A stretch of 40,475 nt of DNA from a virus (Duplodnaviria; Heunggongvirae; Uroviricota; Caudoviricetes), in IMG/VR virus record IMGVR_UViG_2875713109_000005; one strand, written 5' to 3'. The notes under the pieces are model-generated. The model had not been told where the DNA came from, did not search any database, and worked only from the letters and a program-made list of their open reading frames with translations. Shown here one piece after another: positions 5,742-34,359 of the stretch. A program made the translations under genes and the position numbers. Position 1 is the stretch's first letter. Every line of letters begins with the position of its first letter.

Positions 5742-5950
5742 CGATCCCTTCATTTAGTGACTGCCCCTGGGTTTTTCATGCTCTCCTGCGTCCTAGAGAA
5801 CTTGCCAATAACCTACATTATTTTTGCTTTGCCATTACCAATCGTCCTGAACAAGTTCATTTTAAAGCCAAAGCGCTGCCCAACTTTTATCCTCAATACC
5901 ACATCGTCAGCATGAAATAACCTAATCCCTGTGTTGGGATCTTATAATCG

Positions 5951-5969
5951 CTAATGATAATTATTTACA
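5951..5969. promoter_or_regulatory. Candidate Fur box upstream of sitA
   Basis: ctAATGATAATTATTtaca resembles the Fur consensus GATAATGATAATCATTATC. About 75-90 bp upstream of the sitA start. Confidence 0.45.
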
Positions 5970-6042: not shown

Positions 6043-6957
6043 ATGCTCTCAATAAAAAAAGTAACCATGCTCTTGGGGTGCCTAGTCCTCACCTGCTCGA
6101 TAGCATTTCAGGCGAGTGCAGCTGAAAAATTCAAGGTCATTACAACTTTTACCATCATCGCAGATATGGCCAAAAACGTGGCTGGAGATGCTGCAGAAGT
6201 CTCATCCATAACCAAGCCTGGTGCAGAAATTCATGAGTATCAGCCTACCCCTGGCGATATTAAACGTGCGCAGGGGGCACAACTGATTCTCGCCAATGGT
6301 ATGAATCTGGAATTGTGGTTCCAACGCTTTTACCAGCATCTCAATGGGGTTCCAGAAGTAATTGTCTCTTCGGGTGTGACGCCAGTAGGGATCACCGAAG
6401 GGCCCTATGAGGGCAAACCTAACCCCCATGCCTGGATGTCGCCAGATAATGCTCTGATTTACGTCGATAATATTCGTGATGCGTTTATAAAATACGATCC
6501 GGCAAATGCACAAACCTACCAACGTAATGCCGATACTTATAAAGCCAAGATTACCCAAACCCTTGCCCCCCTGCGTAAGCAGATTGCGGAACTCCCTGAG
6601 AATCAGCGATGGATGGTCACCAGTGAAGGGGCTTTTTCTTATCTCGCACGCGATTTGGGGCTAAAAGAGCTTTATCTGTGGCCGATTAATGCCGATCAAC
6701 AAGGAACACCGCAGCAGGTACGTAAGGTTGTTGATATAGTTAAGAAAAATCATATCCCGGCAGTCTTTAGCGAGAGTACGATTTCCGATAAACCAGCGCG
6801 TCAGGTTGCGCGTGAAACCGGCGCGCACTACGGTGGTGTGCTCTATGTCGATTCCCTGAGCACAGAAAACGGCCCGGTACCTACGTATATCGACCTTCTG
6901 AAGGTTACTACCAGTACGCTGGTACAGGGAATTAAAGCCGGAAAAAGGGAGAAATAA
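6043..6957 (+). CDS. sitA: Mn(II)/Fe(II) ABC transporter periplasmic substrate-binding protein SitA
   Basis: 304 aa with signal peptide ([18 protein letters not shown]). Cluster-9 metal-binding protein by recall; first gene of a four-gene ABC operon with overlapping junctions. Confidence 0.9.
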
Positions 6958-7784
6958 TGATGCAATCTGCAGGCATTGTCGTTAATGATGTTACTGTCAC
7001 CTGGCGTAACGGGCACACAGCACTGCGCGATGCATCCTTCACAGTACCAGGCGGATCTATTGCCGCTCTGGTTGGGGTAAACGGTTCCGGAAAATCGACG
7101 TTGTTTAAAGCGATTATGGGATTTGTGCGTCTGACCAGCGGGAAGATATCTGTTCTGGGTATTCCCACACGACAGGCGCTACAGAAAAACCTGGTTGCCT
7201 ACGTCCCTCAGTCAGAAGAGGTTGACTGGTCATTTCCTGTACTGGTGGAAGATGTGGTGATGATGGGCCGCTATGGGCATATGGGTATGTTGCGTATCGC
7301 CAAAAAGAGGGATCGTCAGATTGTCACCGATGCGCTGGAACGTGTCGATATGGTGGATTTTCGCCATCGACAAATCGGCGAGCTTTCCGGTGGACAAAAG
7401 AAACGCGTCTTTCTGGCGAGAGCGATTGCACAGCAGGGTGATGTGATCCTGCTGGATGAACCTTTTACCGGCGTTGATGTGAAAACCGAAGCGAAAATCA
7501 TCAGCCTGTTGAGGGAGTTACGCGCGGAAGGCAAAACGATGCTTGTCTCAACGCACAATCTCGGATCCGTCACGACATTTTGCGATTATACGGTCATGGT
7601 CAAAGGCACCGTCCTGGCAAGCGGGCCGACAGACACCACTTTTACAGCCGAGAACCTGGAGCTGGCTTTTAGCGGCGTACTGCGCCATGTCACACTTAAC
7701 GGCTCGGAAGAAAGCATTATTACTGACGATGAACGCCCTTTTGTGGCACATCGACCGTCAGCGGTGCAGAGGGAAGAAAGATGA
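6957..7784 (+). CDS. sitB: Mn/Fe ABC transporter ATP-binding protein SitB
   Basis: Walker [13 protein letters not shown] signature LSGGQKKR, Walker B ILLDEP. Start overlaps the sitA stop. Confidence 0.9.
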
Positions 7785-8638
7785 ACGCGCTACTGGAACC
7801 CTTCAGCTATGAATATATGCTCAATGCGATGTGGGTCTCGGCGATGGTCGGCGGTCTCTGCGCTTTCCTGTCATGCTATCTGATGCTAAAAGGCTGGTCG
7901 CTGATTGGCGATGCGCTGTCGCACTCTATTGTCCCGGGTGTTGCGGGGGCATATATGCTGGGGCTTCCGTTTTCTCTGGGAGCCTTCTTTTCCGGCGGAC
8001 TGGCAGCGGGCAGCATGCTGTTTCTTAACCAACTCACTCGCTTAAAAGAAGATGCCATCATCGGCCTGATCTTCTCGTCCTTTTTTGGCCTGGGGCTGTT
8101 TATGGTGTCATTGAACCCGACATCCGTGAACATTCAGACCATCGTCCTGGGCAATATTCTGGCAATCGATCCGGCGGATATCCTGCAACTCACTATCATT
8201 GGCATTCTCTCGATCATCGTGCTTTTTTTCAAATGGAAAGATCTTATGGTGACCTTTTTCGACGAGAATCACGCCCGTGCTATTGGATTGCATCCGGGCA
8301 GATTAAAAATCCTCTTCTTCACCCTGCTGTCGGTTTCGACCGTTGCGGCGCTGCAAACGGTTGGTGCCTTTCTGGTGATCTGTCTGGTGGTGACTCCCGG
8401 TGCAACAGCATGGTTGTTAACCGATCGTTTTCCCCGCCTGCTCATGATTGCTGTAACTATTGGCAGTGTGACCAGTTTCCTCGGCGCGTGGGTCAGTTAC
8501 TTTCTGGACGGCGCGACAGGTGGAATCATCGTGGTGGCGCAGACACTGCTGTTTCTTTTAGCATTTGTCTTTGCGCCCACCCATGGGCTTTTGGCAAATC
8601 GTCGGCGTGCGCATAAAGCGCTGGAGGATCGCTCATGA
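7781..8638 (+). CDS. sitC: Mn/Fe ABC transporter permease SitC
   Basis: 285-aa polytopic membrane protein; 4-nt overlap with sitB. Confidence 0.9.
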
Positions 8639-9492
8639 TGGCATTATTACTGGAGCCACTGCAGTTCACCTTTATGAGTCACGCACTGCTGATTTCACTG
8701 GTAGTTTCCATACCCTGTGCGCTGCTGTCGGTCTTTCTGGTCCTGAAAAGTTGGGCACTGATGGGTGACGCGATGAGTCATGCGGTTTTTCCTGGCATCG
8801 TGCTTGCCTGGATTCTGGGGTTACCTCTGGCTACAGGGGCATTCGTCGCCGGAGTATTCTGTGCGGTGGCGACGGGATACCTGAAAGACAACAGCCGAAT
8901 CAAGCAAGATACAGTGATGGGGATTGTTTTTTCTGGCATGTTTGCCGCAGGTCTGATCTTGTATATTGCAGTCAAACCAGACGTACATCTTGATCATATT
9001 CTTTTCGGCGACATGCTCGGGATAACCATCGGCGATATAATCCAGACGGTGATTATTGCCGGACTGGTTACACTTGTTATTAGCGTAAAATGGCGGGATT
9101 TTTTGCTGTTCAGCTTTGATTATCAACAGGCGCAGGCAAGCGGTTTGCATACGAGATGGCTGCATTATGGGCTGCTGTGCATGGTCTCCCTGACCATTGT
9201 GGCGACGCTGAAAGCGGTAGGTATCATTCTCTCTATTTCTCTTCTCATTGCGCCTGGTGCCATTGCGGTACTCCTGACACAACGCTTTCATATTGCGCTC
9301 CTGCTGGCGACTGGCATATCGATATTGGTCTCAATGACTGGTGTCTGGCTGTCCTTTTTTATCGACAGCACGCCAGCTCCGACAATTGTTGTCTTATTCG
9401 CGGTCATGTTCATCATGACGTTTACCGTTACCAGCATCAACGCACGCACAAAGGAAAATGCCGAACCACGGGATTTGTTATCATCCGATTAG
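8635..9492 (+). CDS. sitD: Mn/Fe ABC transporter permease SitD
   Basis: 285-aa polytopic membrane protein paralogous to SitC; 4-nt overlap with sitC. Confidence 0.9.
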   Translation: MMALLLEPLQFTFMSHALLISLVVSIPCALLSVFLVLKSWALMGDAMSHAVFPGIVLAWILGLPLATGAFVAGVFCAVATGYLKDNSRIKQDTVMGIVFSGMFAAGLILYIAVKPDVHLDHILFGDMLGITIGDIIQTVIIAGLVTLVISVKWRDFLLFSFDYQQAQASGLHTRWLHYGLLCMVSLTIVATLKAVGIILSISLLIAPGAIAVLLTQRFHIALLLATGISILVSMTGVWLSFFIDSTPAPTIVVLFAVMFIMTFTVTSINARTKENAEPRDLLSSD

Positions 9493-9680: not shown

Positions 9681-9985
9681 GGGGGGCGAGGGCCAGTGAT
9701 GTAAAAAACCACGCTAAGAGTTTAATTAATTGTTTGTATTGAAGTTTAATGATCTTAACTCACCCTTAAGAATATCTTCCGGTAACGAAGACGTATAATG
9801 CCCCAGCATATTTATATGGCTATGTATCAGCAGCGATAATCTTGCCGGATGCTACTCCTCAGGAGTTTCTCCCGATTTGCGAAGATGTGACAACGCCTCC
9901 TGCATGTAAAGTGTGTTTCACAGCACAACCGCATTGGTCACCAGCCCCAGAGCACCTAGTTGATCTTCCTGCCCTTAACGGTAGC
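9681..9985 (-). mobile_element. Degenerate Tn3-family transposon end: 38-bp terminal repeat plus decayed 3' end of a tnpA-like gene
   Basis: GGGGGGCGAGGGCCAGTGATGTAAAAAACCACGCTAAG at 9681-9718 matches the Tn3 IR at 25 of 38 positions by eye. 9860-9990 resembles the 3' end of tnpA at 15235-15340 but carries in-frame stops. Confidence 0.5.
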
Positions 9986-9986
9986 T

Positions 9987-10130
9987 GAAGATGACTGGGC
10001 TGGATGGAAAATCCTGCATGGTGCATTGGGAGAGCAGATAGAATTGGTTGGCGACGATCTGTTTGTGACCAACGTAAAGTATATTCAGCGCGGCATTGAC
10101 GAAAACCTTGCAATCCTTTGTGTATCATTA
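9987..10130 (+). pseudogene. Enolase gene fragment (C-terminal-region codons only)
   Basis: Encodes [40 protein letters not shown], containing the conserved enolase block [10 protein letters not shown]. Diverged from E. coli eno as recalled; no start and no remainder of the gene. Confidence 0.5.
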
Positions 10131-10348
10131 AAATCTTTGTAGTAATCAGATTCCTTTCCATAACTGTCTTCAAGTAACTTTTTTGCTCTTGCAATCCAGT
10201 TATTACCTTTAGCCGAATCAATATATTCCTGGCTTCTGTGACTAAATGCACTTGTTCCCATATATTTTGTCGACATGACAGAATTGTACTCTTGTTCAAG
10301 CACTTCAAATCTTTCAGCTAAGGCCTTCTTCGTCATAGCGCAATCCAA
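10085..10348 (-). CDS. Hypothetical small protein (87 aa)
   Basis: ORF only; AT-rich; no recognisable motif. Its 3' end overlaps the enolase-like fragment on the opposite strand. Confidence 0.3.
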
Positions 10349-11995: not shown

Positions 11996-12040
11996 GCCTT
12001 TAACGCCTTTAACGCCTTTAACGCCTTTAACGCCTTTAAG
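11996..12040. repeat. Tandem 9-bp repeat (GCCTTTAAC, about five copies)
   Basis: Direct read: gcctttaac four times then gcctttaag, immediately followed by a GGGGGG run. Confidence 0.75.
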
Positions 12041-12448
12041 GGGGGAAGATAGAGCAACTCACCGATGATGAATAAAGTGGACGAAGAGACGATAACTACA
12101 CTCCCATCCAGGGGGGGGGCTTTTTTTGTGGTACTGTAGTGTGGGAGTAAGTTCGGGTCTCATATTGAATGAGGCGATTGCGAGCTGCCTTTCATCGAAA
12201 ACTAATGTCCATTGTCATTGTATTGTCTGACTCTATCTCGTAACAAGTCTTTGACACAAAGTTTTATATTTTTATCAAAGTGGACATGAGGGGAATTAAA
12301 TTTGTGATCTTTTTCAAATAATGTGTTCTTGATAGTAGATTCTGGTTAGTGATATCTATTAACAATATATTAAATTTCTTTTGTATTATCGCTGATAAAA
12401 CTACTGTATTGGTATACTATATATTATTGAGTAACAGGAGATATCACT

Positions 12449-13951
12449 ATGAAGAAATTTTATCAATTTAGGGATGAACAGCGAAAGGAGCTTGAACAAC
12501 ATGATTTTTATAGTTTGATTTCTTCAGATTGTATAGCGTTGAAAGACAAACTATTATTTGCTCCTGTTATGGCTCATTTCATAATGAACTTCAGAGACAT
12601 GAATAAATGGGTTATCAGGTTTGATAACAATGATAATGAATATAAATCTGTTATAAACGGTGGAACAATCGAGGATGAAACACATTCAAGATTGTTTCTG
12701 GAAGACTGGAGGAAACTATATATAGATGACAAACTTAACTGGAAAGCAAGTGATGTTATATACTGGTTGTTTATTAGTCGAGAAATGGAGTGTTTCCGAA
12801 AATTTGGTATTGATTTTATGAGACTTTGTGTAGATGATGGAGGAGACCCAATACTTCGATATTCTCACTCCGAGTCAGGAGAAACTTGCGGTAATATATT
12901 CTTTTCAAGAATTAGTCCTATTGCTGATCAAGTTGCCAATCATTTGGGAATATCACTCCGTTATTTTGGAACATTTCACCTTAATCTTGAAAATGGACAT
13001 GTATGGAAGTCAGAAGGTGTTTTTGAAAATATAGAGTTGTCACCAGATTCTTATAAGAAAATGGCTACTCTATCAAAGAGAATGTTTGATATATTTGAAG
13101 GAATTCATGACTCTTTTTATAATTACCTGTCCAGTTATGTTCTTAATGGAAGTCATCCGTCATTTTTTGAATCATTACCTGTAGGGAAAAATGTTGCACC
13201 TATATACCCTGAATTTGTGATAGAAAACAAAAGCCATAACGATGGTAGACATATTGAACATATAAACAATTACCTGGAAAAAATATCGAGTCATGAGTTC
13301 TTTAAATGGCTGATTAACACCTCAATAGACCCTCAATTGAAATTGAAAAGTTTCATACCTCTTTGGATTGTTGATATTATGGGGTATAGAGATATTAATA
13401 AATATGTTTTTACATATGAACAGCCTGAATCAGAAAGTGAAAAGATTATAAATGATTATGCATTACACTTGTCAGAGCATAGCCGTTTATTTTATCATGA
13501 CTGGAAGTCACTTCAACTTGATGATATGTTACGTTGGAGTGCCAGTGATACTCTTGAGTTTATTTTTCTTAATTCAGATATGGATATGCATAGAGAAAAT
13601 ATAGTTAAGTTTTCTTTGTTCGGATTAAAACACAGAGATCCTGTTATCAGGTTCTGGTTTATGATGATACTGGAGTTAAGTGGAAAAGAATTTTTCTCTC
13701 ATGTTGGAGATATAGCTTTACAGGTGGAAAGTAAATATAATATTTATCTCCCATATTTATGTGGACGCCATGCAACAGAAAATGAGCATGAAGCATATAA
13801 TAATATGTATGAGCATTTTATGGTAAAGGAACTTAGCCCTGAACAAAGTGATCTAATAATACAAATTACAGACATGGTTATGCGGTCATTATTGAATAAT
13901 TTGGATATCTCATATCGATATGTAGTAAATAATTTATTGGCAGCTCGTTAG
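12449..13951 (+). CDS. Orphan 500-aa protein of unknown function with internal two-fold duplication
   Basis: Very AT-rich ORF with a GGAG-type RBS-like sequence upstream. Residues about 74-135 (THSRLFLEDWRKLYIDDKLNWKASD...) are repeated at about 340-400 (EHSRLFYHDWKSLQLDDMLRWSASD...). Terminator-like hairpin follows. Confidence 0.7.
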   Translation: MKKFYQFRDEQRKELEQHDFYSLISSDCIALKDKLLFAPVMAHFIMNFRDMNKWVIRFDNNDNEYKSVINGGTIEDETHSRLFLEDWRKLYIDDKLNWKASDVIYWLFISREMECFRKFGIDFMRLCVDDGGDPILRYSHSESGETCGNIFFSRISPIADQVANHLGISLRYFGTFHLNLENGHVWKSEGVFENIELSPDSYKKMATLSKRMFDIFEGIHDSFYNYLSSYVLNGSHPSFFESLPVGKNVAPIYPEFVIENKSHNDGRHIEHINNYLEKISSHEFFKWLINTSIDPQLKLKSFIPLWIVDIMGYRDINKYVFTYEQPESESEKIINDYALHLSEHSRLFYHDWKSLQLDDMLRWSASDTLEFIFLNSDMDMHRENIVKFSLFGLKHRDPVIRFWFMMILELSGKEFFSHVGDIALQVESKYNIYLPYLCGRHATENEHEAYNNMYEHFMVKELSPEQSDLIIQITDMVMRSLLNNLDISYRYVVNNLLAAR

Positions 13952-13984
13952 AAGAACAGCATTGGTATGACTCTGATGCTCCTT

Positions 13985-14015
13985 AAAATCCCACTTTTCA
14001 GAGTGGGATTTGTTT
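13985..14015 (+). terminator. Putative intrinsic terminator after the 500-aa orphan gene
   Basis: AATCCCACT-TTTCAG-AGTGGGATT stem-loop followed by TGTTT. Confidence 0.55.
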
Positions 14016-14051
14016 AATGCCCAGAACAGGGGGAATTTCCATTCATGCCCA

Positions 14052-14406: not shown

Positions 14407-14444
14407 GGGGGCACCTCAGAAAACGGAAAATAAAGCACGCTAAG
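14407..14444. repeat. Tn21/Tn501-type 38-bp terminal inverted repeat (mer end)
   Basis: GGGGGCACCTCAGAAAACGGAAAATAAAGCACGCTAAG, recognised from memory; the merR stop codon lies inside it. Confidence 0.7.
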
Positions 14445-14874
14445 GCATAGCTGACCTTGCCAGGCCTGCTTCGCCCTGTAGTGACGCGATCAACGGGCAG
14501 GAAACATTCCCCTTTCGTGCATGGCAGGCGCACACGAGTTCAGACAGCACGGTTTCCATGCGCGCCAAGTCGGCCATCTTCTCGCGCACGTCCTTGAGCT
14601 TGTGTTCGGCCAGGCTGCTGGCCTCCTCGCAGTGGGTGCCATCGTCGAGCCGCAACAGCTCGGCAATCTCGTCCAGACTGAACCCCAGCCGCTGTGCCGA
14701 TTTCACGAATTTCACCCGAACCACGTCCGCCTCCCCATAGCGGCGGATGCTGCCGTAAGGCTTGTCCGGTTCCCGCAACAGGCCCTTGCGCTGATAGAAG
14801 CGGATTGTCTCCACGTTGACCCCGGCCGCCTTGGCAAAAACGCCAATGGTCAGGTTTTCCAAATTATTTTCCAT
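14440..14874 (-). CDS. merR: Mercury resistance transcriptional regulator MerR
   Basis: 144 aa from [33 protein letters not shown] with the C-terminal cysteines ([10 protein letters not shown]...[16 protein letters not shown]) typical of Tn21/Tn501 MerR. Divergent from merT'. Confidence 0.85.
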
Positions 14875-14945
14875 ATCGCTTGACTCCGTACATGAGTACG
14901 GAAGTAAGGTTACGCTATCCAATCCAAATTCAAAAGGGCCAACGT

Positions 14946-15035
14946 ATGTCTGAACCACAAAACGGGCGCGGTGCGCTCTTCGCCGGCGGGCTGGCCGCCA
15001 TTCTTGCATCGACCTGCTGCCTGGGGCCGCTAGTA
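14946..15035 (+). pseudogene. merT: merT 5' fragment (first 30 codons) truncated by the Tn3-family insertion
   Basis: Encodes [30 protein letters not shown] and then runs directly into the Tn3-type inverted repeat at 15036. Confidence 0.75.
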
Positions 15036-15068: not shown

Positions 15069-18000
15069 TTAAGCAACGTTTTCTGCCTCTGACGCCTCTT
15101 TTAATGGTCTCAGATGTCCTTTGGTCACCAGTTCTGCCAGCGTGAAGGAATAATGGCCGAGCATATTGATATGTCCGTGGCAAAGCGGGGAGAGGCGTGC
15201 GATATCTTCATCATTCAGTGTTTCACCCTGCGCCCGGAGATGATCCAGGGCTGCCTGCATATAAATAGTGTTCCATAACACGACGGCGTTAGTGACCAGC
15301 CCCAGTGTGCCCAGTTGATCTTCCTGACCGTCGGTATATCGTTTTCTTATCTCACCTTTTTGACCGTGACAGATGGCTCTGGCAACGGCATGGCGACTTT
15401 CTCCCCGATTAAGCTGGGTCAGAATGCGCCGGCGGTAATCTTCATCATCAATATAATTAAGCAGATACAGCGTTTTGTTGATGCGCCCCACTTCAATGAT
15501 TGCCTGAGTCAGTCCGGAAGGACGTTCACTTTTCAGCAATGAACGGACCAGCACTGAAACCTGTACTTTGCCCAGCTTCAGGGAGCCAGCGGTCCGGATC
15601 ATTTCGTCCCACTGAAGGACTATTTTTCGGGGATCTGATTGCCCTCTGGCAATATCATTCAGCACGCCATAGTCGGCATCATGGTCCATTCGCCAGAAAA
15701 CCGAAGCACCGGCATCAGCCAGGCGTGGAGAAAACTGGTATCCCAGCAGCCAGAAAAGGCCAAAGACAAGTTCGCTGGCACCTGCTGTATCGGTCATAAT
15801 TTCGGTTGGATTCAGCCCGGTCTCCTGTTCCAGAAGACCTTCCAGCACAAAGATAGAGTCCCTCAGCGTCCCCGGTATAACGATGCCATGAAAGCCGGAA
15901 TACTGATCGGACACAAAGTTGTACCAGGTGATCCCTCTGTTATTACCAAAGTATTTGCGGTTCGGTCCGGCATTGATTGTTCTGACTGGCGTAACAAAGC
16001 GCATTCCATCTGCAGATGCCACTTCTCCTCCACCCCATATCTGTGCCAGTGGCAGCGTTGCCTGAAAATCAACCAGTCTGGCATTAGCGCTGGTGATAGT
16101 TTCAGCCCGCAGATAGTTCGCTTTTGTCCAGTTCAGCCGGTGTCGGGTCAGTGCAGGAACATTTGATCTGATCAGTGGTTCCAGACCGATATTGCAGGCT
16201 TCAGCCATCAGCACGGCGCTGATGCTGACGGGCAGATCATCAACTCTGGCACTGGCTTCACTAGCATGGAAAAACTCATCAGCAAATCCGGTATGGGCGT
16301 TAATTTCGAGCAGCAACTCCGTTAAATCCACCGGAGGGAGTAGATCACTGATCATTTTGCTCAGTCGTTTCAGACTGTCCGGCTCATCAAGACTGGCGAG
16401 GGGAGAAATTGTCAACCGGGGCTTCGGGCCAGAAACATCGAGTTCGACAGCCTCATTTTCGCAAAGACGTGCAGCAACCTGTCTGTAACGACTATCAAGC
16501 TGATGACCCAGAGATTTTATTGCTTCCTGCGGGTCTGTCGGGTGCCCCAAAGAACGATAAACCTTAATCCGGTTTGCCTGCCAGTCAGCACCCTGTAGTA
16601 ATCTTGCACGAGGATCTCCCCACCGGTTACTGCCGGTAACGTAGACATCCCTCCGCCTCAGACTATCCTGCAGTTTACTGAGAAAGCAGAGCGTGTATCC
16701 CCTGCGGGTGATATGTTTTTCCTTGTTAATCACCAGCCGTTTCCATGACCGACTGATAATTTCCGTTGGTGCGTCGTCAAAAAACTGCCGCCGTGAGCTG
16801 AACTCCCGGCTGAGGTAGTCACAGGCATTCAGAGTGGTAACCCCGGCAGGTGCGGATGAAAATTTAACGGTATTCAGCAGATGGGGCAGGAAACGACGAA
16901 CGCGCCCGTACTGCTCCACCATTTCTTCATGAAAATTATCGTCTGAGGGCCGGGCAATTTCACGGACAAGCGTGATGATTTCAGCCAGCTTTTGCCTTGG
17001 GATGTAGCTGAACACCTCAGCACGAATCGATTCGTCCGGTGTTTCTTCTTTCAGCAGGTACGAACATGCGCTGGCGAGCGCCAATGCAGATTTATCCAGA
17101 TCCTTCAGCGAGCGGAGCCGTTTTTTCTGCCCAATCTTTCTGGCGTCACGGATGATAACGGCCAGCATGGCGTCCAGAACGTCCAATGCATCATCCAGCG
17201 CCAGCGTTTCCCATGCAAGGACAAAGGCAACCAGAACCGCCATCCTTTTCTGCGGTGACATCCTGGCAATATTGAACACCGAAGTCATACCAGCATAACG
17301 TGCGAGATTTTTCAGGCGCACAGCCGGGAGTGTACTCAGGTTTTCAGCATGCAGGCCAAAATCGTTCAGAGTTTTCCAGCGTTCAATTGCTTCATTAAAC
17401 GCCGGACCACTGATGGTCACAGGGCCCTTTTTCAGTGATTCCAGTAAAGACAGGCGGCTGCAATCAGTTGGCCCCAGCAGCATCTCCAGCTGTGAACGCT
17501 GTTCGGCTGACGGTATCAGTGCCAGTTTGTTCCACAGGCGCAACGTCGCCTTTTCCCTTACCTCTGAAATCAACCGGGTCAGCGTAGTGGCTCCGGGGAG
17601 AATAATACGATGTTGCATAAGCCACCCTGTCGCCAGATCGAAAAGCAGGCCAGGACGTTCGTTGCTTATCCAGCTCCGGGTATATAAAAGACGGGTAAGG
17701 CGAAATGTCCAGGGCCAGGCAAATTCACGATACTGATAGTGCTGACGTATCAGCGCTGCATGCTCACGGCGGGTATTTTCCCTCTGACCGTATTCTGCAA
17801 GAACGGTGATATCACGAATCCCGAGCTGTCTGGCGGTAAAATGCCGGACGCCGGAAGGAATATGATTCATATCGGTGAGGAAGGTGCCCAGAAAACGGAC
17901 ACATCCAATTTGCAGGGCAATGCCCAGACGGTTGTGATCACCTCTGCTTTTTCCGATAAATTCCTTGTCTGCTTCATCAAGGTGAAAATATCGTGCCAGC

Positions 18001-18074
18001 TGAAGCTCATCCGGTTCACCGGTGAATCTGCCATAGCTTTCAGTCTGCTCAGTGGTCAGAAAGTCAACGGGCAT
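15069..18074 (-). CDS. tnpA: Tn3-family transposase TnpA
   Basis: About 1001 aa starting MPVDFLTTEQTESYGRFTGEP (internal Met of the longer ORF in the track). Stop lies inside the terminal repeat. Confidence 0.9.
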   Translation of the reverse strand: MPVDFLTTEQTESYGRFTGEPDELQLARYFHLDEADKEFIGKSRGDHNRLGIALQIGCVRFLGTFLTDMNHIPSGVRHFTARQLGIRDITVLAEYGQRENTRREHAALIRQHYQYREFAWPWTFRLTRLLYTRSWISNERPGLLFDLATGWLMQHRIILPGATTLTRLISEVREKATLRLWNKLALIPSAEQRSQLEMLLGPTDCSRLSLLESLKKGPVTISGPAFNEAIERWKTLNDFGLHAENLSTLPAVRLKNLARYAGMTSVFNIARMSPQKRMAVLVAFVLAWETLALDDALDVLDAMLAVIIRDARKIGQKKRLRSLKDLDKSALALASACSYLLKEETPDESIRAEVFSYIPRQKLAEIITLVREIARPSDDNFHEEMVEQYGRVRRFLPHLLNTVKFSSAPAGVTTLNACDYLSREFSSRRQFFDDAPTEIISRSWKRLVINKEKHITRRGYTLCFLSKLQDSLRRRDVYVTGSNRWGDPRARLLQGADWQANRIKVYRSLGHPTDPQEAIKSLGHQLDSRYRQVAARLCENEAVELDVSGPKPRLTISPLASLDEPDSLKRLSKMISDLLPPVDLTELLLEINAHTGFADEFFHASEASARVDDLPVSISAVLMAEACNIGLEPLIRSNVPALTRHRLNWTKANYLRAETITSANARLVDFQATLPLAQIWGGGEVASADGMRFVTPVRTINAGPNRKYFGNNRGITWYNFVSDQYSGFHGIVIPGTLRDSIFVLEGLLEQETGLNPTEIMTDTAGASELVFGLFWLLGYQFSPRLADAGASVFWRMDHDADYGVLNDIARGQSDPRKIVLQWDEMIRTAGSLKLGKVQVSVLVRSLLKSERPSGLTQAIIEVGRINKTLYLLNYIDDEDYRRRILTQLNRGESRHAVARAICHGQKGEIRKRYTDGQEDQLGTLGLVTNAVVLWNTIYMQAALDHLRAQGETLNDEDIARLSPLCHGHINMLGHYSFTLAELVTKGHLRPLKEASEAENVA

Positions 18075-18795
<721 letters not shown>

Positions 18796-19985: not shown

Positions 19986-20602
19986 CTGAACAATGTGACG
20001 GACTCAGAAGCCTTCCCGGGTCTTATCCGGCAGACTCACAGAAAAATCAGGGCAGCATCGGCAGATGGCGCTTACGACACCCGGCTCTGTCACGATGAAC
20101 TGCGGCGTAAGAAAATCAGCGCCCTTATCCCACCCCGAAAAGGTGCGGGTTACTGGCCCGGTGAATATGCAGACCGTAACCGTGCAGTGGCTAATCAGCG
20201 AATGACCGGGAGTAATGCGCGGTGGAAATGGACAACAGATTACAACCGTCGCTCGATAGCGGAAACGGCGATGTACCGGGTGGGTTACTGGCCCGGTGAA
20301 TATGCAGACCGTAACCGTGCAGTGGCTAATCAGCGAATGACCGGGAGTAATGCGCGGTGGAAATGGACAACAGATTACAACCGTCGCTCGATAGCGGAAA
20401 CGGCGATGTACCGGGTAAAACAGCTGTTCGGAGGTTCACTGACACTGCGTGACTACGATGGTCAGGTTGCAGAGGCTATGGCCCTGGTACGAGCGCTGAA
20501 CAAAATGACGAAAGCAGGTATGCCTGAAAGCGTGCGTATTGCCTGAAAACACAACCCGCTACGGGGGAGACTTACCCGAAATCTGATTTATTCAACAAAG
20601 CC
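19986..20602 (+). mobile_element. IS903 3' fragment with terminal repeat, containing a 135-bp internal tandem duplication
   Basis: Starts inside the transposase gene directly after the Tn3 repeat and ends with the IS903 terminal repeat at 20602. Segment 20148-20282 is repeated at 20283-20417. Confidence 0.8.
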
Positions 20603-23175
20603 ACGGGAGACTCGCAGTTTGGACACTTTATGTTAATTGAAGACATAGGCATCAAAGACAAATAGGTCCAATACTCGCCATTCTTAATTAATCGTGTATT
20701 GCATGTACCACAGTGGGTATACACGGTAAAGTGTGTACACTCATTGCACCGATACCAACGCTTTTGATTATTTGAACTCATTGATTTCGTTACATCAACT
20801 ACTTTTTCAGACCCACAAGAAACACAAAAATTCACCGCATGAGTATCATCCGATGCTCCTCGAAAAGATGTATTGTCTTCAATGCCGTACTGTAGAAACA
20901 TCCCTAGCATACGTTGGATTTCATCAAGATAGCGTTGCGACTTCATTGGGTTTGCACATACTGCACCATAGTTTGTAGCTTGGCGTTGATGGCGTGCAGG
21001 TTCCCAATCAAACATGGATAGTTCGCCCAAATAACTGTCTTTCGCCCATTCCTGTGGAGAGACGACTTTCTCAACCGCATCTAACACGGGGTGAAGAACA
21101 AACACACTGTTCTCTTGGCATTCGCTATAATCTTTGCCGTTGTAAAGTTCATGGATAACCCCACCGATCCCACCTCTTTGCTTGAGATAGGCAGCAGAAT
21201 AGTACTTTGCATCGACGACTAACCGCTTTGAAATCTGGTTACCACTTTTGGTAATCGCTTCTACATCCAAAACAAAATCAGGGCGCTTACCATTTGCTAA
21301 GAACGGTTCGTATTGCAGAGTGATAGCTCTTGAAACACTTGGGTTGAAAAACTGAATGCTGATTTGTTCTTCATTGCCTTGAATATTCGCAATCAATTTT
21401 CGTTTCCAGTTGTCCTCTGGCTGATAGCGGAATGCCTGAGTCAGCACTTTGATGATTTGCAGCAAACACCAGCGTTCATAAAGTAGTGGCATGTTGACTA
21501 ACCCAATCGCTTCGATCTTCTCCAGCGAAAGCAAAATGTCCTCATCGGCCAAGCCAATCTGCTCTTTTAACTTTTTAAAACCCGAGTGAACCGCTTGATA
21601 GGCAGGGTTTTGCACAAAAGTCATAGAGTTAGGAAAGGTGCTTTTACTTTTGACTTTGCATTGACGCCATTCTTTTTCTATTTGCTGGAAAGGTTTCAGT
21701 TTTGGCTCAAGCGCTTTGTGTACGATTCCCACCTTTTCATGTTCAGTTGCGAAATAACCCAAGCGCTTATTGATGGTAGCACGTTCTTTTTCCTGTTCAG
21801 CGAGTTCATCTGTTGTCAGCTTCGCTTGCCAATCATTTTTACTTAGAGCAATGCCTTTATCACGCAATTTAGTGAAATTTTCTTGCTCTCTTTGAATAGA
21901 ACGAGACTCTGGTAATACGCAAATTCGTGAGATGTATTCTGGATACAAGACCACCGCTTTTCCCCTTCTTAACGGTAAAGGGATCTTCGCTTCTATCTCA
22001 TAGTCGCTATAAGCTTTAAACAAGCTGGCGTAATGATCTCTAGAATTAAAAATGGTATATCCATCTGGCTCAAACTGTTGCCAGTCATCATTTTGCGATA
22101 GTTTAATTTTAGCCCACCACTCATTCTCAGAGCCTGTTGCTTTTTCCAATCTTAGGTAACCTTTTTCAGAGTAACTTCGAGACAGATTAACGTTGATTTT
22201 CGCTAACTGTTCCGATAACTCGGCATTGATTACTTCTGTATCAAAGCGCTTTTTAAGTCGTTCTAAGTCTTTAACTACTAGGTCACGGTTGATAATACGA
22301 TAGTCTTTTAAACTGTCTAAACGCTCATTGAGCTTTTCAATAGCCCCAGAAAAACGACTCTTTTTGCTCTCAGCCACCTTAACCAATTGCTTTACAATGC
22401 TCAGCGTGCTCGAAACCACATACAGCACATACTGGTTTTCTGGCACGTTGTAACTCGGCTCAGATGCGCGGCTCGTTAAATGCTTACGCGAACCTTTGGT
22501 ACAAATCTCCATAAATGTACGTGGAACAGGACGTACTTCTTTTGCTGGCTTTAACGCTTGAATTTCTTTCAGTTCAACTTTGGGCTTTTTGAGGATGGTT
22601 TGTGCATTGCTAAGAATTGATGCGACTAATGACAGCGCTTCTTGGCCGATGGCTGCAACCTGTGAATTTTTAGCGTCGCCCGTGATATGACTATTCTCAT
22701 CGAGGATCAGCTCCCACAGGTCCGCTTTAAAATCTGACAGGTAACGTGAAAGATCCGATTTGGTCTGTTCGGAGATATCAATATCAAGCTTTAGTGTCGA
22801 GTTACCAATAACAAACGTGATCTGACCAGCCGTTCGCCTCGCTTCACTGCGCCACACCCGTTGTTTTGCGTCCCAATGAGCAGGCTCAACCCACCACACA
22901 GCATTAGATGCGGGATCGGTTATCGACTCTAACTGCTTTCTATCACCATTAGGCATGACAATGTAAGGCGGAGACTGATCACCCTGCTTAGTTTTTATCG
23001 CAAGTTGAGCAAAACGTAGCTCATCGACCTTAGGGTAGATGGTGGTGTGTGCGGAAAATGCATTGTTCCCCGTCTGCTCAAGCTTTAGCGAGTACTCCGA
23101 CTCGCTAACACTGACTAAGGTTTGCTTATCGTGCCATTTGGTCTCGATAAACTTGATAACGAATGGAGCTTCCAT
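20572..23175 (-). CDS. Large nuclease-like partner protein (867 aa as annotated): PD-(D/E)xK motif plus C-terminal CxxC zinc-ribbon cluster; 3' end replaced by IS903 sequence
   Basis: ATG lies 2 nt after the upstream ATPase stop. ...GKRPDFVLDVEAITKSGNQISKRLVVDAKYY gives PD (632-633) and D-A-K (655-657). Four CxxC pairs between 784 and 854. Central coiled-coil-like stretch. Last 9 codons and stop (20572-20602) come from the IS903 terminal repeat. Confidence 0.75.
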   Translation of the reverse strand: MEAPFVIKFIETKWHDKQTLVSVSESEYSLKLEQTGNNAFSAHTTIYPKVDELRFAQLAIKTKQGDQSPPYIVMPNGDRKQLESITDPASNAVWWVEPAHWDAKQRVWRSEARRTAGQITFVIGNSTLKLDIDISEQTKSDLSRYLSDFKADLWELILDENSHITGDAKNSQVAAIGQEALSLVASILSNAQTILKKPKVELKEIQALKPAKEVRPVPRTFMEICTKGSRKHLTSRASEPSYNVPENQYVLYVVSSTLSIVKQLVKVAESKKSRFSGAIEKLNERLDSLKDYRIINRDLVVKDLERLKKRFDTEVINAELSEQLAKINVNLSRSYSEKGYLRLEKATGSENEWWAKIKLSQNDDWQQFEPDGYTIFNSRDHYASLFKAYSDYEIEAKIPLPLRRGKAVVLYPEYISRICVLPESRSIQREQENFTKLRDKGIALSKNDWQAKLTTDELAEQEKERATINKRLGYFATEHEKVGIVHKALEPKLKPFQQIEKEWRQCKVKSKSTFPNSMTFVQNPAYQAVHSGFKKLKEQIGLADEDILLSLEKIEAIGLVNMPLLYERWCLLQIIKVLTQAFRYQPEDNWKRKLIANIQGNEEQISIQFFNPSVSRAITLQYEPFLANGKRPDFVLDVEAITKSGNQISKRLVVDAKYYSAAYLKQRGGIGGVIHELYNGKDYSECQENSVFVLHPVLDAVEKVVSPQEWAKDSYLGELSMFDWEPARHQRQATNYGAVCANPMKSQRYLDEIQRMLGMFLQYGIEDNTSFRGASDDTHAVNFCVSCGSEKVVDVTKSMSSNNQKRWYRCNECTHFTVYTHCGTCNTRLIKNGEYWTYLSLMPMSSINIKCPNCESPVALLNKSDFG

Positions 23176-23177
23176 GA

Positions 23178-25352
23178 TTACGCCCAGTAGTTCACAACGC
23201 CATCATTCGATTCAGCCGTTTTAACCAAACGCTCTACCGATTTGGTGCAAGAAAACTCCGCCGTTATCTCTGCTTGATTATCCAACAGCGACTCAAGGCG
23301 AGGCAAGAATACACGGCTAACAAGCTCAGCTTTACTGTAATCGCCTACTTGCTTATCACCATCAAATGTGAATTTTGGTAGCACCTTATGAACGATAAAG
23401 TTGTTGATGGCCAGAGACTTATTGTCGTTTACATCGCTAAACAAACTTACGTAGTTAAGCCCCTGTCGAATGGTACGCATACCAAACTCCACGCCAAGCG
23501 GATCAAAGACATCTCGGTTTAAGGTCGTAAACAACTCGCAGAATTCATTCGTACGTTCAAATTTCGGATAAGGGGTACGCTCACCAAGCTCTTCAATATC
23601 AAACACTAGCGGTAAAGTAACGTCGTCTAGCCCGTAAGAGTCAATCTCATCAAAAATCGCATCCCAGTCGGTCAGCAAAGGACTCTTAAACTTCATCACA
23701 TGCGCGCGGTCAAGAATTTTTGGTGAGAGGTAATGGGTTGTTTCGTCGATGTTGATAGCACCAATAATTCTTACGTTCGCTGGAATCGTGATTGACGAAG
23801 GCGTGCCGAGAACACCTGCCAACATGCGTCTGATATCACCGTGGTATTTAATCAGTGAGTCTTTATCGCTAAAGCCAAACGCGCGCTTCATTTCAGCGTT
23901 AATTTCTTCATCTTGCATGAGCGCAACGAAGTCCACGATGCCATTTTTGCTGAACTTTTCTTGCGCGTTAGAAATGACAGAAACAACCCCTTTTAGCTCG
24001 GCAAGAACGTGTGCAGCTTCATCATCCGAGTAAAGTTGAATGGTCGGTTGCTCGTTACGCTCCTCTAGCTTAGAAAGAAAGTCGGCAAAGTAATATTCCA
24101 CTCGGGCAAGGTTCATTTCGTCTAAACAGATGAAGTATGGGATATCTGGGTTTTGCTTAGCCTCGATCAATGCCTCAAGAAATGGTGTCACCAAATATTT
24201 CTTCTCTAGGGGATTGTAATAACCCAGCAAATCTTCTGAACTAGTCCAGTTAGGCTTGACCGGAATGATCTTCGATACCCCACCAATAGCCTTGGCAAAC
24301 GACTGAACCAGGTTTGTTTTGCCTGAGCCTGAGTCCCCCGCCAGAATGATGAGATCATGGGTGCGAATAAGCGTTAGGAAGTTCTCGATAATATGGCGCG
24401 GGTACAAGATATCTCGTTCTTTTAGGTGCGCTTGAATGTATGAAACGGCATCACTGTAGTTAGAATCAAAAGCTTGCGAAAAAGAGATATGCTCGTCACG
24501 ATCCTTATTAGACAAGGTGCTTCCAACAAAAAGGTCAAAATCGTCATCATCCAAAAACTCAAAGCTTTTTAGGAATCCAGCCTTACTTTCGACATAAGCT
24601 TTTAAGCGTTCAATTTTTTTAGACATTGTTTCTTCTGCCTTCTTTTGCAATGCGATTTTGTGTTGCCATTCAGAGTGTTCAACTTCCAGCTTTTGGGCTT
24701 TCGCAATTGCCTGAGAGAGAACGTTATTTTTTTGATTTAGGTCATCTTGGACATGTTGAAGCTGATCTTTATATGACGATATCTGAGCCTTCAATGAGGA
24801 TTCTTCGCGCTCAAATTCTGCGTTAAGTGCAGTCACTTCGCTGTCAATTCTTGATTGAACGTTCTGTAAATGCTGCTTGTAAACAGCTTCATCAAGGAAG
24901 ATGTTTTCATCACCTTTGATGATGTCATTCGCCGTATATTCAGGAAGTTTGATAAGTCGACGGACTGAACTTACTACCACATTGCATTCGAACGGGTTTT
25001 CATGTTTTTCGCGTTCAGATTGAGGCGCTAAAGCAAGCTCGCATGAGACAAAACTCCCATCTTCCAAGCCAAATAACTCTTCGACACTTTTGAAGGAAAC
25101 AAAAACACCTTTGTCCATCGTCAAACGAACATTAATGGGATATTCAGTATCCAGTCCCGTTTGGAGGGATTTAATCTCTAAAAGACGGGTTGGGAGCTTT
25201 CTGCTATCGGAATCTGGGCCATTTAGAATCTTGCCCCAAACTGCCAGTTTTCCATTCGTAATCCCCCAACTCTCACAAAGGCATTGATAAAGCTCTTCAT
25301 CAGAGAACCCTTTAACCTCTTCAAGATTGTAGATAACTTGTTCTAAGGCCAT
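23178..25352 (-). CDS. P-loop AAA+ NTPase, McrB/AAA_5-like, with N-terminal domain and coiled coil (724 aa)
   Basis: Walker A LAGDSGSGKT (338-346), Walker B FICLDEMNLA (407-416) with the DE-x-N pattern of AAA_5/McrB proteins, sensor-like RIIGAINIDETT (528-539). Heptad-rich region about 165-255. Confidence 0.8.
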   Translation of the reverse strand: MALEQVIYNLEEVKGFSDEELYQCLCESWGITNGKLAVWGKILNGPDSDSRKLPTRLLEIKSLQTGLDTEYPINVRLTMDKGVFVSFKSVEELFGLEDGSFVSCELALAPQSEREKHENPFECNVVVSSVRRLIKLPEYTANDIIKGDENIFLDEAVYKQHLQNVQSRIDSEVTALNAEFEREESSLKAQISSYKDQLQHVQDDLNQKNNVLSQAIAKAQKLEVEHSEWQHKIALQKKAEETMSKKIERLKAYVESKAGFLKSFEFLDDDDFDLFVGSTLSNKDRDEHISFSQAFDSNYSDAVSYIQAHLKERDILYPRHIIENFLTLIRTHDLIILAGDSGSGKTNLVQSFAKAIGGVSKIIPVKPNWTSSEDLLGYYNPLEKKYLVTPFLEALIEAKQNPDIPYFICLDEMNLARVEYYFADFLSKLEERNEQPTIQLYSDDEAAHVLAELKGVVSVISNAQEKFSKNGIVDFVALMQDEEINAEMKRAFGFSDKDSLIKYHGDIRRMLAGVLGTPSSITIPANVRIIGAINIDETTHYLSPKILDRAHVMKFKSPLLTDWDAIFDEIDSYGLDDVTLPLVFDIEELGERTPYPKFERTNEFCELFTTLNRDVFDPLGVEFGMRTIRQGLNYVSLFSDVNDNKSLAINNFIVHKVLPKFTFDGDKQVGDYSKAELVSRVFLPRLESLLDNQAEITAEFSCTKSVERLVKTAESNDGVVNYWA

Positions 25353-31566: not shown

Positions 31567-32340
31567 ATGACATCCTTTCAATTATCTTTGATTTCTCGTG
31601 AAATTGACGGCGAAATAATACATTTACGTGCCAAAGATGGTTACATAAACGCCACATCAATGTGTAGAACTGCGGGCAAACTGCTCTCTGATTACACTAG
31701 ACTCAAAACTACTCAAGAGTTTTTTGACGAATTATCACGCGATATGGGAATTCCCATATCGGAGTTAATTCAATCATTTAAAGGTGGAAGACCTGAAAAC
31801 CAAGGGACATGGGTGCATCCTGACATCGCTATTAATCTAGCGCAGTGGCTATCGCCCAAATTTGCAGTCCAGGTTTCAAGATGGGTTCGTGAATGGATGT
31901 CAGGGGAAAGAACTACAGCAGAAATGCCTGTACATTTAAAACGGTACATGGTTAATCGTAGTAGAATTCCTCACACGCACTTTTCTATTCTTAATGAACT
32001 GACATTCAACTTGGTTGCACCTCTTGAACAAGCAGGGTACACACTCCCAGAAAAAATGGTTCCTGACATTTCACAAGGAAGAGTATTTTCACAATGGTTA
32101 AGAGATAATAGAAACGTAGAACCCAAAACATTCCCTACCTATGACCATGAATATCCCGATGGTCGCGTATACCCTGCAAGGCTGTACCCAAATGAATATT
32201 TAGCAGATTTCAAAGAACATTTTAACAATGTTTGGTTGCCGCAATATGCCCCGAAATACTTCGCTGACCGGGACAAAAAGGCTCTCGCCTTGATTGAAAA
32301 AATTATGCTACCTAACCTCGATGGCAATGAACAGTTCTAA
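31567..32340 (+). CDS. KilA-N domain protein
   Basis: N-terminal region (IDGEIIHLRAKDGYINATSMCRTAGKLLSDYTRLKTTQEF) has the KilA-N/APSES-type signature common in lambdoid prophages. Confidence 0.65.
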   Translation: MTSFQLSLISREIDGEIIHLRAKDGYINATSMCRTAGKLLSDYTRLKTTQEFFDELSRDMGIPISELIQSFKGGRPENQGTWVHPDIAINLAQWLSPKFAVQVSRWVREWMSGERTTAEMPVHLKRYMVNRSRIPHTHFSILNELTFNLVAPLEQAGYTLPEKMVPDISQGRVFSQWLRDNRNVEPKTFPTYDHEYPDGRVYPARLYPNEYLADFKEHFNNVWLPQYAPKYFADRDKKALALIEKIMLPNLDGNEQF

Positions 32341-33564: not shown

Positions 33565-34359
33565 TCACTTTTCCGATGCAACATGGCGGGAAGAATCAGT
33601 AATCTGTCGTACAATATCCCTGTGCTTGTTCAACTCACGCAGCGCGGCGCAGACACACTCCCACTTCTGGACATGATTTTTCGCCCGACGCAGTTCGCGG
33701 TTTGCCATATGCAGTGATGGTAAAACCAGGTCATCCGCTCGCGTTTCAGTAAACGATGGCAGCGACTGCACAATGTCCGCCACAGTTTCTGTTTTAATAT
33801 CTTCCTGTGTTGCAGCCTCCTGTACTGGTAACGCAACACCTGCGGTCTGAGGAAAGGCCTTACCATCAGTTTCCGCTACCGATGCTGCTTTCGGCTCTGC
33901 TGGTAAATTATCGCCCGGTATGCAGTAACGAAATTTACCGCCCTGATTTACGCGAATCAGACGACCTTTGCTGATTGCCATTGCCAGCGTTGAAGCCACT
34001 TTGCGTGATGTGGTACCAAACAATGTAGCCAGCTCATCAGCCGTTTGTGGTCCGCGTTGTTCAATCGTCGCGGTTAAATCGCACTCTGAGATTTTCGCTA
34101 CTGTTGCTGTGGTGGTTTCTTCCAGCAGTTCTACCTGCGCTGGCTGTTCCTGCTGAACGTTGTTATCAGCCACACGCCAGGTGTACGCGCTTTTATCAAC
34201 ACAACCAGCCTTTTTCAGTTCCCATAGTTCGTTCAGCACTTCTTCACGACTGATATCAAGTCGAGCAGCAAGTTCTATGGATGTGGCTTTTCCCATTGCT
34301 TTCAGTGCGTCAAAAACAGTCTCCATTAAATTTTTCTCCCGGTAAAAATTACTTCGCAA
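33565..34359 (-). CDS. Hypothetical phage replication-region protein with N-terminal winged-helix-like segment (264 aa; alternative start at 34326)
   Basis: N-terminus [43 protein letters not shown] looks like a wHTH. Overlaps the stop of the DnaC-like gene. Confidence 0.5.

Follow-up and report, generated by a model that had tools for sequence, protein, structure and literature searches.

An AT-rich plasmid gene encodes a predicted tandem heme-oxygenase-like diiron oxidase related to AetD, with one complete and one degenerate metal site

A 40,475-nucleotide stretch of DNA recorded as a tailed-phage genome (Caudoviricetes; IMG/VR record IMGVR_UViG_2875713109_000005; hereafter, the window) contains an AT-rich gene for a protein of 500 amino acids. 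What kind of protein is it, and what might it do? An earlier note, made from the sequence without database searches, saw in it two homologous halves and a possible pseudo-dimeric enzyme or binding fold. It assigned the protein to no family, regarded it as an orphan, and proposed a standalone effector or defence gene. The comparisons described here place the protein among the heme-oxygenase-like diiron oxidases (HDOs). By sequence and by a predicted model, it is composed of two fused copies of the HDO fold, with AetD as the closest solved relative. It is probably a pseudo-dimer in a single chain, of which one diiron domain is catalytic and would oxidise an alpha-amino acid, probably an aromatic one.

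The window protein is identical to RefSeq WP_000715078.1 and UniProt Q849W5, both of which carry the label 'hypothetical protein'. A phmmer search against the PDB matched residues 1–231 to AetD with an E-value of 8e-18. The C-terminal half also matched AetD (E = 1e-5), and a profile built from 17 C-halves recovered it with an E-value of 4e-19. At E ≤ 1, this profile found no family in the PDB besides AetD; HamA was not detected. Similarity to AetD extends across the whole domain in both halves. Pfam and NCBIfam contain no model covering the tandem-HDO family, and scans against them returned only noise far under the curated cut-offs (Ribosomal_S16, E = 0.15; XerS, E = 0.018).

An AlphaFold2 model built with 67 homologues has a mean predicted local distance difference test score (pLDDT) of 93.6 and a predicted template modelling score (pTM) of 0.93. 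The model forms one rigid body, and the pLDDT drops to 61–73 only in the linker, at about residues 241–270. The fold is the seven-helix heme-oxygenase-like bundle, with three core and four auxiliary helices. When the model was submitted to Foldseek, a check suggested in the earlier note, the top 21 matches were all AetD chains, with target template modelling scores of 0.81–0.87. Other HDOs followed after a wide gap (BesC 15.3, HamA 15.0, UndA 14.7, CADD-like 14.4, and RohS 14.2). TenA proteins and true heme oxygenases ranked below these. The protein can thus be given a family after all. The match is not to a housekeeping family, as AetD is an enzyme of secondary metabolism, and the two-domain subfamily is uncharacterised.

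The internal repeat seen in the earlier note holds on alignment. The two halves (residues 1–250 and 251–500) share 32% identity over 173 residues (BLASTP E = 3e-25). The two motifs quoted in that note align with each other, and each holds a histidine at an iron-ligand position, H79 and H344. The strongest motif common to both halves, W-(R/K)-x-L-x-x-D-D-x-L-x-W-x-A-S-D, lies at residues ~89–102 and ~354–367. All 67 aligned members have the two-domain architecture, as do about 37 representative clusters. In a neighbour-joining tree with AetD as outgroup, the N-halves and the C-halves each form a monophyletic set, which points to a single ancient event in which an AetD-like subunit was duplicated and fused. 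The mean identity to AetD is 24% for the N-half (range 21–29%) and 20% for the C-half (range 17–24%), and each N-half shares on average 28% identity with its own C-half. AetD is a single-domain homodimer with subunits of about 240 residues, whereas the window protein carries two such units in one chain of 500 residues, the second without half of its ligands. The pseudo-dimer suggested in the earlier note agrees with this comparison and with the pTM of the model.

The active site of AetD has been described in PDB structures (8JI2–8JI7, 8TWN, 8TWT, and 8TWW). Fe1 is coordinated by H79, H172, and E176 together with the amine and carboxylate of the substrate, and Fe2 by D76, E140, E176, and H179. 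The indole is gripped by F44 and I146, the carboxylate by Y167. F48 on auxiliary helix 2 sits where the N-oxygenating HDOs SznF and RohS place an extra Glu ligand. AetD and the window protein align without gaps over residues 1–100 and therefore share numbering there; the equivalent ligands are given in Table 1.

By this alignment, the N-domain is predicted to contain a full AetD-type active site. Among the 67 members, D76, H79, and H177 are invariant, E145 and E181 are each present in 66, and H184 is present in 61. In the pocket, F48 and Y172, which align with F48 and Y167 of AetD, occur in all 67 members, F44 in 65, and F151 in 60. The E. coli protein has every one of them. The set of three histidines and three carboxylates on the three core helices is complete in the N-domain and incomplete in the C-domain. 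The features of an open Fe1, Phe48 in place of Glu and a tyrosine as carboxylate anchor, are each found in 67/67 N-domains. The conserved His, Asp, and Glu positions that the earlier note had pointed out correspond, by comparison with AetD, to metal-ligand positions.

The C-domain was analysed from column counts over the same 67 sequences and from a three-way alignment with AetD. The equivalent of AetD D76 is a leucine (L341) in every sequence, and the positions of the bridging E176 and of H179 are variable. H344 and H441 are retained in 67/67 sequences and E409 in 65/67. Because three of the six ligands are lost, the C-domain is predicted to be unable to assemble a canonical diiron cofactor, yet it has not decayed. 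Its pocket is changed yet invariant, with I41, F44, F48, I146, Y167, and S171 of AetD corresponding to W306, D309, Y313, F415, Y436, and R440. The polar and invariant pocket suggests that the C-domain has kept a binding function, for a ligand or for one metal ion. For the latter, a precedent is HamA, a mononuclear 2-His-1-Glu HDO.

If a metal were bound there, both domains could be catalytic. As in HamA, the C-domain would hold a mononuclear non-heme iron or another metal, here through H344, H441, E409, and perhaps D309, Y313, or H445, and would catalyse a further step that uses the N-domain product or a co-substrate. This arrangement is unlikely. In AetD, H79 and H172 bind Fe1 while E140 binds Fe2, and the three retained C-domain residues would need to converge on one metal. 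In addition, H445 is an asparagine (N445) in the E. coli protein, and the C-half profile did not detect HamA by sequence.

In the pseudo-dimer favoured here, a cytoplasmic single chain would contain two HDO seven-helix bundles. The N-domain (residues 1–236) would be the catalytic unit, holding two Fe(II) ions by D76/H79, E145, and H177/E181/H184. With Phe48 replacing the Glu ligand, Fe1 would be open to chelation by the amine and carboxylate of an alpha-amino acid. Tyr172 would be hydrogen-bonded to the carboxylate of the substrate, and F44, F48, and F151 would grip a side chain that is hydrophobic and probably aromatic. Binding of the substrate would set off O2 addition, giving a peroxo-diiron(III) intermediate, and this species would decarboxylate the amino-acid moiety oxidatively or break it apart, like AetD or SktA. 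The C-domain (residues 266–500) would stand in for the second protomer of the AetD homodimer. The AetD dimer interface is formed by auxiliary helix 3 around T95 and M96. The equivalent segments of the window protein, around residues 89–102 and 354–367, carry the strongest motif shared by the two halves, in line with such a role.

The product cannot be predicted from the characterised relatives. AetD is the nitrile synthase of aetokthonotoxin biosynthesis in the cyanobacterium Aetokthonos hydrillicola and converts (halo)tryptophan to the nitrile indole-3-carbonitrile. SktA, an AetD homologue and aerobic skatole synthase of Nostoc punctiforme, converts tryptophan to skatole, cyanide, and bicarbonate (PMC11869266). 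SktA, compared here by its description, is likewise a member of the AetD branch of HDOs, but it is a single-domain protein and its gene adjoins those of a tryptophan halogenase and a flavin monooxygenase. As the only two characterised relatives already differ, the exact product for the window protein would not follow from either. The pocket is aromatic like that of AetD (F44, F48, and F151), and product specificity is not readable from the sequence. A specific activity can be proposed only tentatively. On ColV-type plasmids of avian pathogenic and extraintestinal pathogenic E. coli (APEC/ExPEC) and of Salmonella Kentucky, the protein might be a stand-alone O2-dependent enzyme that acts on a free aromatic amino acid of the proteinogenic set, yielding either a nitrile or a skatole-type fragment together with cyanide and CO2. 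Its diiron domain would be paired with a gating or completing domain that has a polar site for a mononuclear metal or a ligand.

An HDO of other chemistry or with another substrate was also considered, for example one performing N-oxygenation or desaturation, or one acting on a peptide, a fatty acid, or a siderophore precursor. HDO reactions are very diverse (PMC13108848), and the identity to AetD is just ~24%. Two homologues (P0224 and P0208) bear IucA/IucC-type domains, hinting that the product is a carboxylate or an amine and undergoes ligation afterwards. This alternative is nevertheless rather doubtful, since the N-domain retains the AetD hallmarks of Phe48, the tyrosine carboxylate anchor, and the aromatic clamp, whereas N-oxygenating SznF and RohS carry Glu at the F48 position.

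The protein is not an orphan. A word-indexed search returned 115 homologous clusters (90% identity) at E ≤ 1e-3, mostly full-length two-domain proteins of ~500 residues, with others shorter and partial. When 1.84 billion representatives were searched exhaustively with a profile, 731 clusters passed the same threshold. Among the best 150 of these 731 representative clusters (50% identity), about 37 are full-length two-domain proteins. Many other representatives are single-domain proteins of 230–260 residues that match the N-half only (E-values of 1e-30 to 1e-45) and are of the AetD/SktA type. The hosts listed for the 115 clusters include E. coli, Salmonella, Yersinia similis, and Piscirickettsia. 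Further hosts are Comamonas, Sorangium, Polyangium, and other Myxococcota, as well as Acidovorax from a genome scan. The actinomycete hosts are Mycolicibacterium (Mycobacterium in the genome scan), Amycolatopsis, Actinomadura, Streptomyces, and Pseudonocardiaceae. All homologues are annotated as 'hypothetical' save one with the UniRef label 'Propane 2-monooxygenase' (P0055), and Pfam matches none of the two-domain homologues.

Rare fusions occur in the family and may hint at the fate of the product. An IucA/IucC-type NIS-synthetase domain is present on P0208 (22 bits) and P0224 (36.5 bits), with a cut-off of 25. P0224, a distant member, also bears a C-terminal ThsB-type TIR domain, the sole case of a TIR fusion. 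P0212, a single-domain relative, is fused with a flavin monooxygenase. Proteins matching the C-half only were considered as possible split-gene ancestors; the one inspected (P0151, 248 residues) starts 146 bp from the contig end and has an in-frame stop upstream (metagenome contig L086, 1–892). Such matches may be fragments. In some actinomycetes and one Sorangium, two paralogues of the two-domain protein lie side by side (cluster 11, 8 loci). The second paralogue, such as that of Amycolatopsis orientalis (L008, 8520–9986), has the H184-equivalent histidine replaced.

In high-GC lineages, the GC content of the tandem-HDO gene is host-like. Neighbours were clustered over 80 loci, and cytochrome P450 genes were counted within 7 kb. 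Such a P450 is present in 35 of the 80 loci, which represent 16 taxa. In 20 loci it is the immediate same-strand neighbour of the tandem-HDO gene, and the FxxGxxxCxG heme motif is present in 36 of 44 such open reading frames (ORFs). In Comamonas, the tandem-HDO gene, the P450, and a major facilitator superfamily (MFS) exporter are consecutive. In Amycolatopsis, Actinomadura, and Streptomyces, two tandem paralogues are accompanied by a P450, two methyltransferases, a DUF6875 protein, and a short-chain dehydrogenase/reductase (SDR). In Sorangium, a P450, an O-methyltransferase, a flavin adenine dinucleotide (FAD) oxidase, and a glycosyltransferase-methyltransferase lie beside the gene. P450, methyltransferase, and MFS neighbours fit a small-molecule metabolism derived from aromatic amino acids. 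Because P450 pairing is frequent in myxobacteria, actinomycetes, and Comamonadaceae, an undescribed class of amino-acid-derived natural products is probably attached to the P450-linked family. No recurrent halogenase family emerged from the clustering of neighbours of the 80 loci. Comparison of the Comamonas P450 with the PDB for a clue to the substrate gave just generic CYP51-, CYP120-, and CYP3A-like similarity. Many other recurrent clusters of neighbouring ORFs in high-GC genomes were set aside as antisense artefacts that naive ORF calling had produced.

The setting in enterobacteria is different. The block from sitABCD to the gene occurs at 99.9–100% identity in about 180–200 IncF/ColV-type E. 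coli plasmids from poultry and humans. The gene is carried by 265 of 5426 complete E. coli genomes (about 5%), 264 of its 269 places in E. coli are on plasmids, and the identity is at least 99% in 252 of 266 records. The exact protein is found on at least 1000 contigs, and its cluster takes in Salmonella Kentucky sequences. The fragments between sitD and the AT-rich block indicate a mosaic junction. A complete insertion sequence (IS) of the IS1 type lies 3′ of the gene on other plasmids. In Piscirickettsia, the gene is located between IS elements and parAB, on plasmids and on the chromosome. The Salmonella homologue adjoins a Tn3-family transposase, another homologue rides an element that resembles an integrative and conjugative element (ICE) and contains TraG/TraU, and others reside in small chromosomal islands. 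The GC content of the gene in enterobacteria and Piscirickettsia is always 32–35%, against 48–51% for the flanks, and the small upstream ORFs differ from case to case. No conserved partner gene was found at the enterobacterial loci. In these bacteria, the gene was acquired horizontally and travels alone as AT-rich cargo of mobile DNA, and its adjacency to sitABCD reflects plasmid architecture, not an operon.

Two divergent small ORFs of 159 and 149 residues accompany the gene on ColV-type plasmids. Pfam and PADLOC scans of these ORFs gave no match. An operon with them was rejected, as a 626-bp gap with terminator-like sites separates them from the gene and no counterparts were found beside the homologues in Salmonella, Yersinia, Piscirickettsia, or the ICE-like element. 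A Fur box was sought because the gene adjoins the Fe/Mn importer sitABCD and its product probably needs iron. Fur control of the gene is unsupported; the best upstream match is 13/19 and is equalled by 13% of shuffles. The best Fur-box-like site of the window matches GATAATGATAATCATTATC at 15/19 positions and lies at 5950–5968, just 5′ of sitA (6043), where it fits an iron-regulated sitABCD.

A gene that occurs alone, as AT-rich cargo of plasmids, of an ICE-like element, and of islands rich in transposons, could also serve in defence against phages or encode a toxin or a secreted effector, along the lines of the earlier note. The TIR domain of P0224 and, in the window, a candidate defence pair (PDC-M26) at a distance of ~7 kb are compatible with this idea. 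It is extremely improbable in view of the other evidence. A PADLOC-DB v2 scan of the tandem-HDO protein returned no family at E ≤ 10, and direct reading of the N-terminus (MKKFYQFRDEQRKELEQHDF) found no hydrophobic signal-like segment. The enterobacterial loci offer no conserved partner, and the TIR fusion is a single case. In high-GC lineages, the host-like GC content and the frequent P450 and occasional methyltransferase neighbours are typical of metabolism. The fold and the ligands are of the small-molecule oxidase type.

The gene differs sharply from its surroundings in composition, as the earlier note had observed. Its GC content is 32.3%, compared with 46.1% for the remaining window. By position, the GC fraction is 0.31–0.33 over 12501–14000, the AT-richest block in its part of the window, ~0.50–0.58 just downstream, and 0.45–0.55 over sitABCD. 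The gene has its own ribosome-binding site, as that note stated. The accompanying claim of a terminator held in part. Folding of the region 13952–14025 gave a minimum free energy of −22.4 kcal/mol (z = −3.06), and 0 of 200 shuffles folded equally well. The 11-bp hairpin has a short U-tract and a consensus terminator scan made no call there, so it is graded as terminator-like only. The spacer of 626 bp 5′ of the gene contains a 9-bp tandem repeat, CGCCTTTAA, in ~5 copies at ~11996–12040. It also contains a G9 run followed by a T7 run at 12111–12127, which the scan took as a terminator-like site and which is also a potential slippage tract.

Several points weigh against the catalytic pseudo-dimer. 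A scan of the plus strand over 12101–12448 found no consensus sigma-70 promoter, and the gene may be poorly expressed or silenced, as it is AT-rich and lacks such a promoter upstream. No P450, halogenase, reductase, or exporter adjoins the gene in E. coli. H184 is substituted in 6 of the 67 members. The N-half is only 21–29% identical to AetD, and the AetD relatives differ in product, so the type of reaction is not transferable. The C-domain has 16 invariant positions versus 17 in the N-domain, a conservation that exceeds the needs of a purely structural role. This analysis shows the fold, the homology, the ligand pattern, a single duplication, purifying selection, and the distribution. We infer which metals are bound, that the substrate is an alpha-amino acid and its side chain aromatic, what kind of reaction takes place and what is formed, and how the pseudo-dimer is arranged. 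Support in three dimensions comes from a predicted model, and the pseudo-two-fold packing and the geometry of the C-site are putative.

The missing promoter and partner genes, together with a neighbourhood of Tn3, eno, and mdh fragments and IS1, could indicate a non-functional, decaying hitch-hiker in a conserved plasmid segment, silenced by its AT content. Such a fate is very unlikely. The gene is full length, its sequence is at least 99% identical in 252/266 E. coli records, and the E. coli copy has all catalytic residues intact. The ratio of nonsynonymous to synonymous substitution rates (dN/dS) was measured against four enterobacterial alleles with 64–86% protein identity, differing by 14–36%, in unrelated genomic contexts. 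It is 0.09–0.10 for the N-domain and 0.14–0.22 for the C-domain, ~0.1–0.2 overall, and both domains are under purifying selection. Against the closest allele, the linker has a dN/dS of ~0.5, compared with 0.10 and 0.17 for the domains. The linker value is 0.11 against the 79% allele, and dS is saturated for the most distant alleles.

The superfamily and the nearest relative of the protein are known, and the tandem architecture with one degenerate domain is undescribed in the searchable literature. Searches there for tandem, fused, or pseudo-dimeric HDOs turned up no description, and those for WP_000715078 and Q849W5 turned up no paper. Known systems differ from it in several respects. SznF fuses an HDO to an unrelated cupin domain, whereas the window protein fuses two HDOs. 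HamA (PDB 9VWB), which acts in fragin biosynthesis, is a single-domain, 2-oxoglutarate-dependent enzyme with a mononuclear 2-His-1-Glu site and no detected sequence similarity. AetD/SktA-type clusters contain a tryptophan halogenase, along with a P450 and a tryptophanase or with a flavin monooxygenase. The E. coli locus has no halogenase, tryptophanase, or P450 and consists of sitABCD, gene fragments, two small ORFs, and IS1.

The HDO superfamily is young and growing fast. To our knowledge, each newly characterised member has brought new chemistry, including formation of a nitrile, skatole plus cyanide, an alkyne, an azetidine, and an N–N bond. The present family contributes a chain in which two unlike HDO units, one with a complete and the other with a degenerate site, are fused as a hetero-pseudo-dimer. 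One member is encoded on virulence plasmids of clinical and agricultural importance, and a single-gene enzyme that should be soluble is tractable in vitro. If a nitrile, cyanide, or an indole-type volatile were made, it would represent an unrecognised metabolic trait of APEC/ExPEC plasmids.

Table 1. Features of the window, with positions counted from its first nucleotide
Feature	Position	Strand	Basis or remark
Complete 500-aa tandem HDO gene, ATG start	12449..13951	+	ORF listing
N-terminal HDO domain, residues 1–236, predicted catalytic	12449..13156	+	
Core helix 1 motif E75-D76-E-T-H79, equivalent to AetD D76 (Fe2) and H79 (Fe1)	12671..12685	+	
Codon of E145, equivalent to AetD E140 (Fe2 ligand, core helix 2)	12881..12883	+	
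Core helix 3 motif H177-x3-E181-x2-H184, equivalent to AetD H172, E176 (bridging), and H179	12977..13000	+	
Inter-domain linker, residues ~237–265	13157..13243	+	Lower model confidence, weak constraint
C-terminal HDO domain, residues 266–500, paralogue of the N-domain, degenerate metal site	13244..13948	+	
Shine-Dalgarno sequence AGGAG, 8 nt 5′ of the ATG	12436..12440	+	Direct reading of the sequence
Terminator-like hairpin, 11-bp stem and 4-nt loop, then GUUUAAU	13986..14011	+	Folding
TrkH-family cation transporter	489–1964	−	
sitABCD, upstream of the gene	6043–9492		Offset from matching plasmid locus
Fragments of Tn3-family transposase, enolase (eno), and malate dehydrogenase (mdh)	9726–10336		RefSeq annotation of identical plasmid segment
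Small ORF, 159 aa, hydrophobic N-terminal segment	10776–11255	−	
Small ORF, 149 aa, hydrophobic N-terminal segment	11373–11822	+	
IS1 end	Starts at 14043		~90 bp past the gene's hairpin
MerR-like ORF	14440–15009	−	After the IS1 end
1054-aa Tn3-family transposase	15069–18233	−	
KilA-N protein	31567–32340	+	
DUF1627 protein	33565–34359	−	
Phage-type integrase	39240–40475	+	

The remaining window combines prophage-like genes with plasmid-type cargo and is thus a mosaic. The two large genes of the PDC-M26 candidate defence pair lie next to each other on the minus strand at 20572–25352 and were matched by PADLOC with an E-value of 0. PDC-M26A is a 724-residue AAA_5 ATPase, and PDC-M26B is an 867-residue protein with a PD-(D/E)XK nuclease domain.

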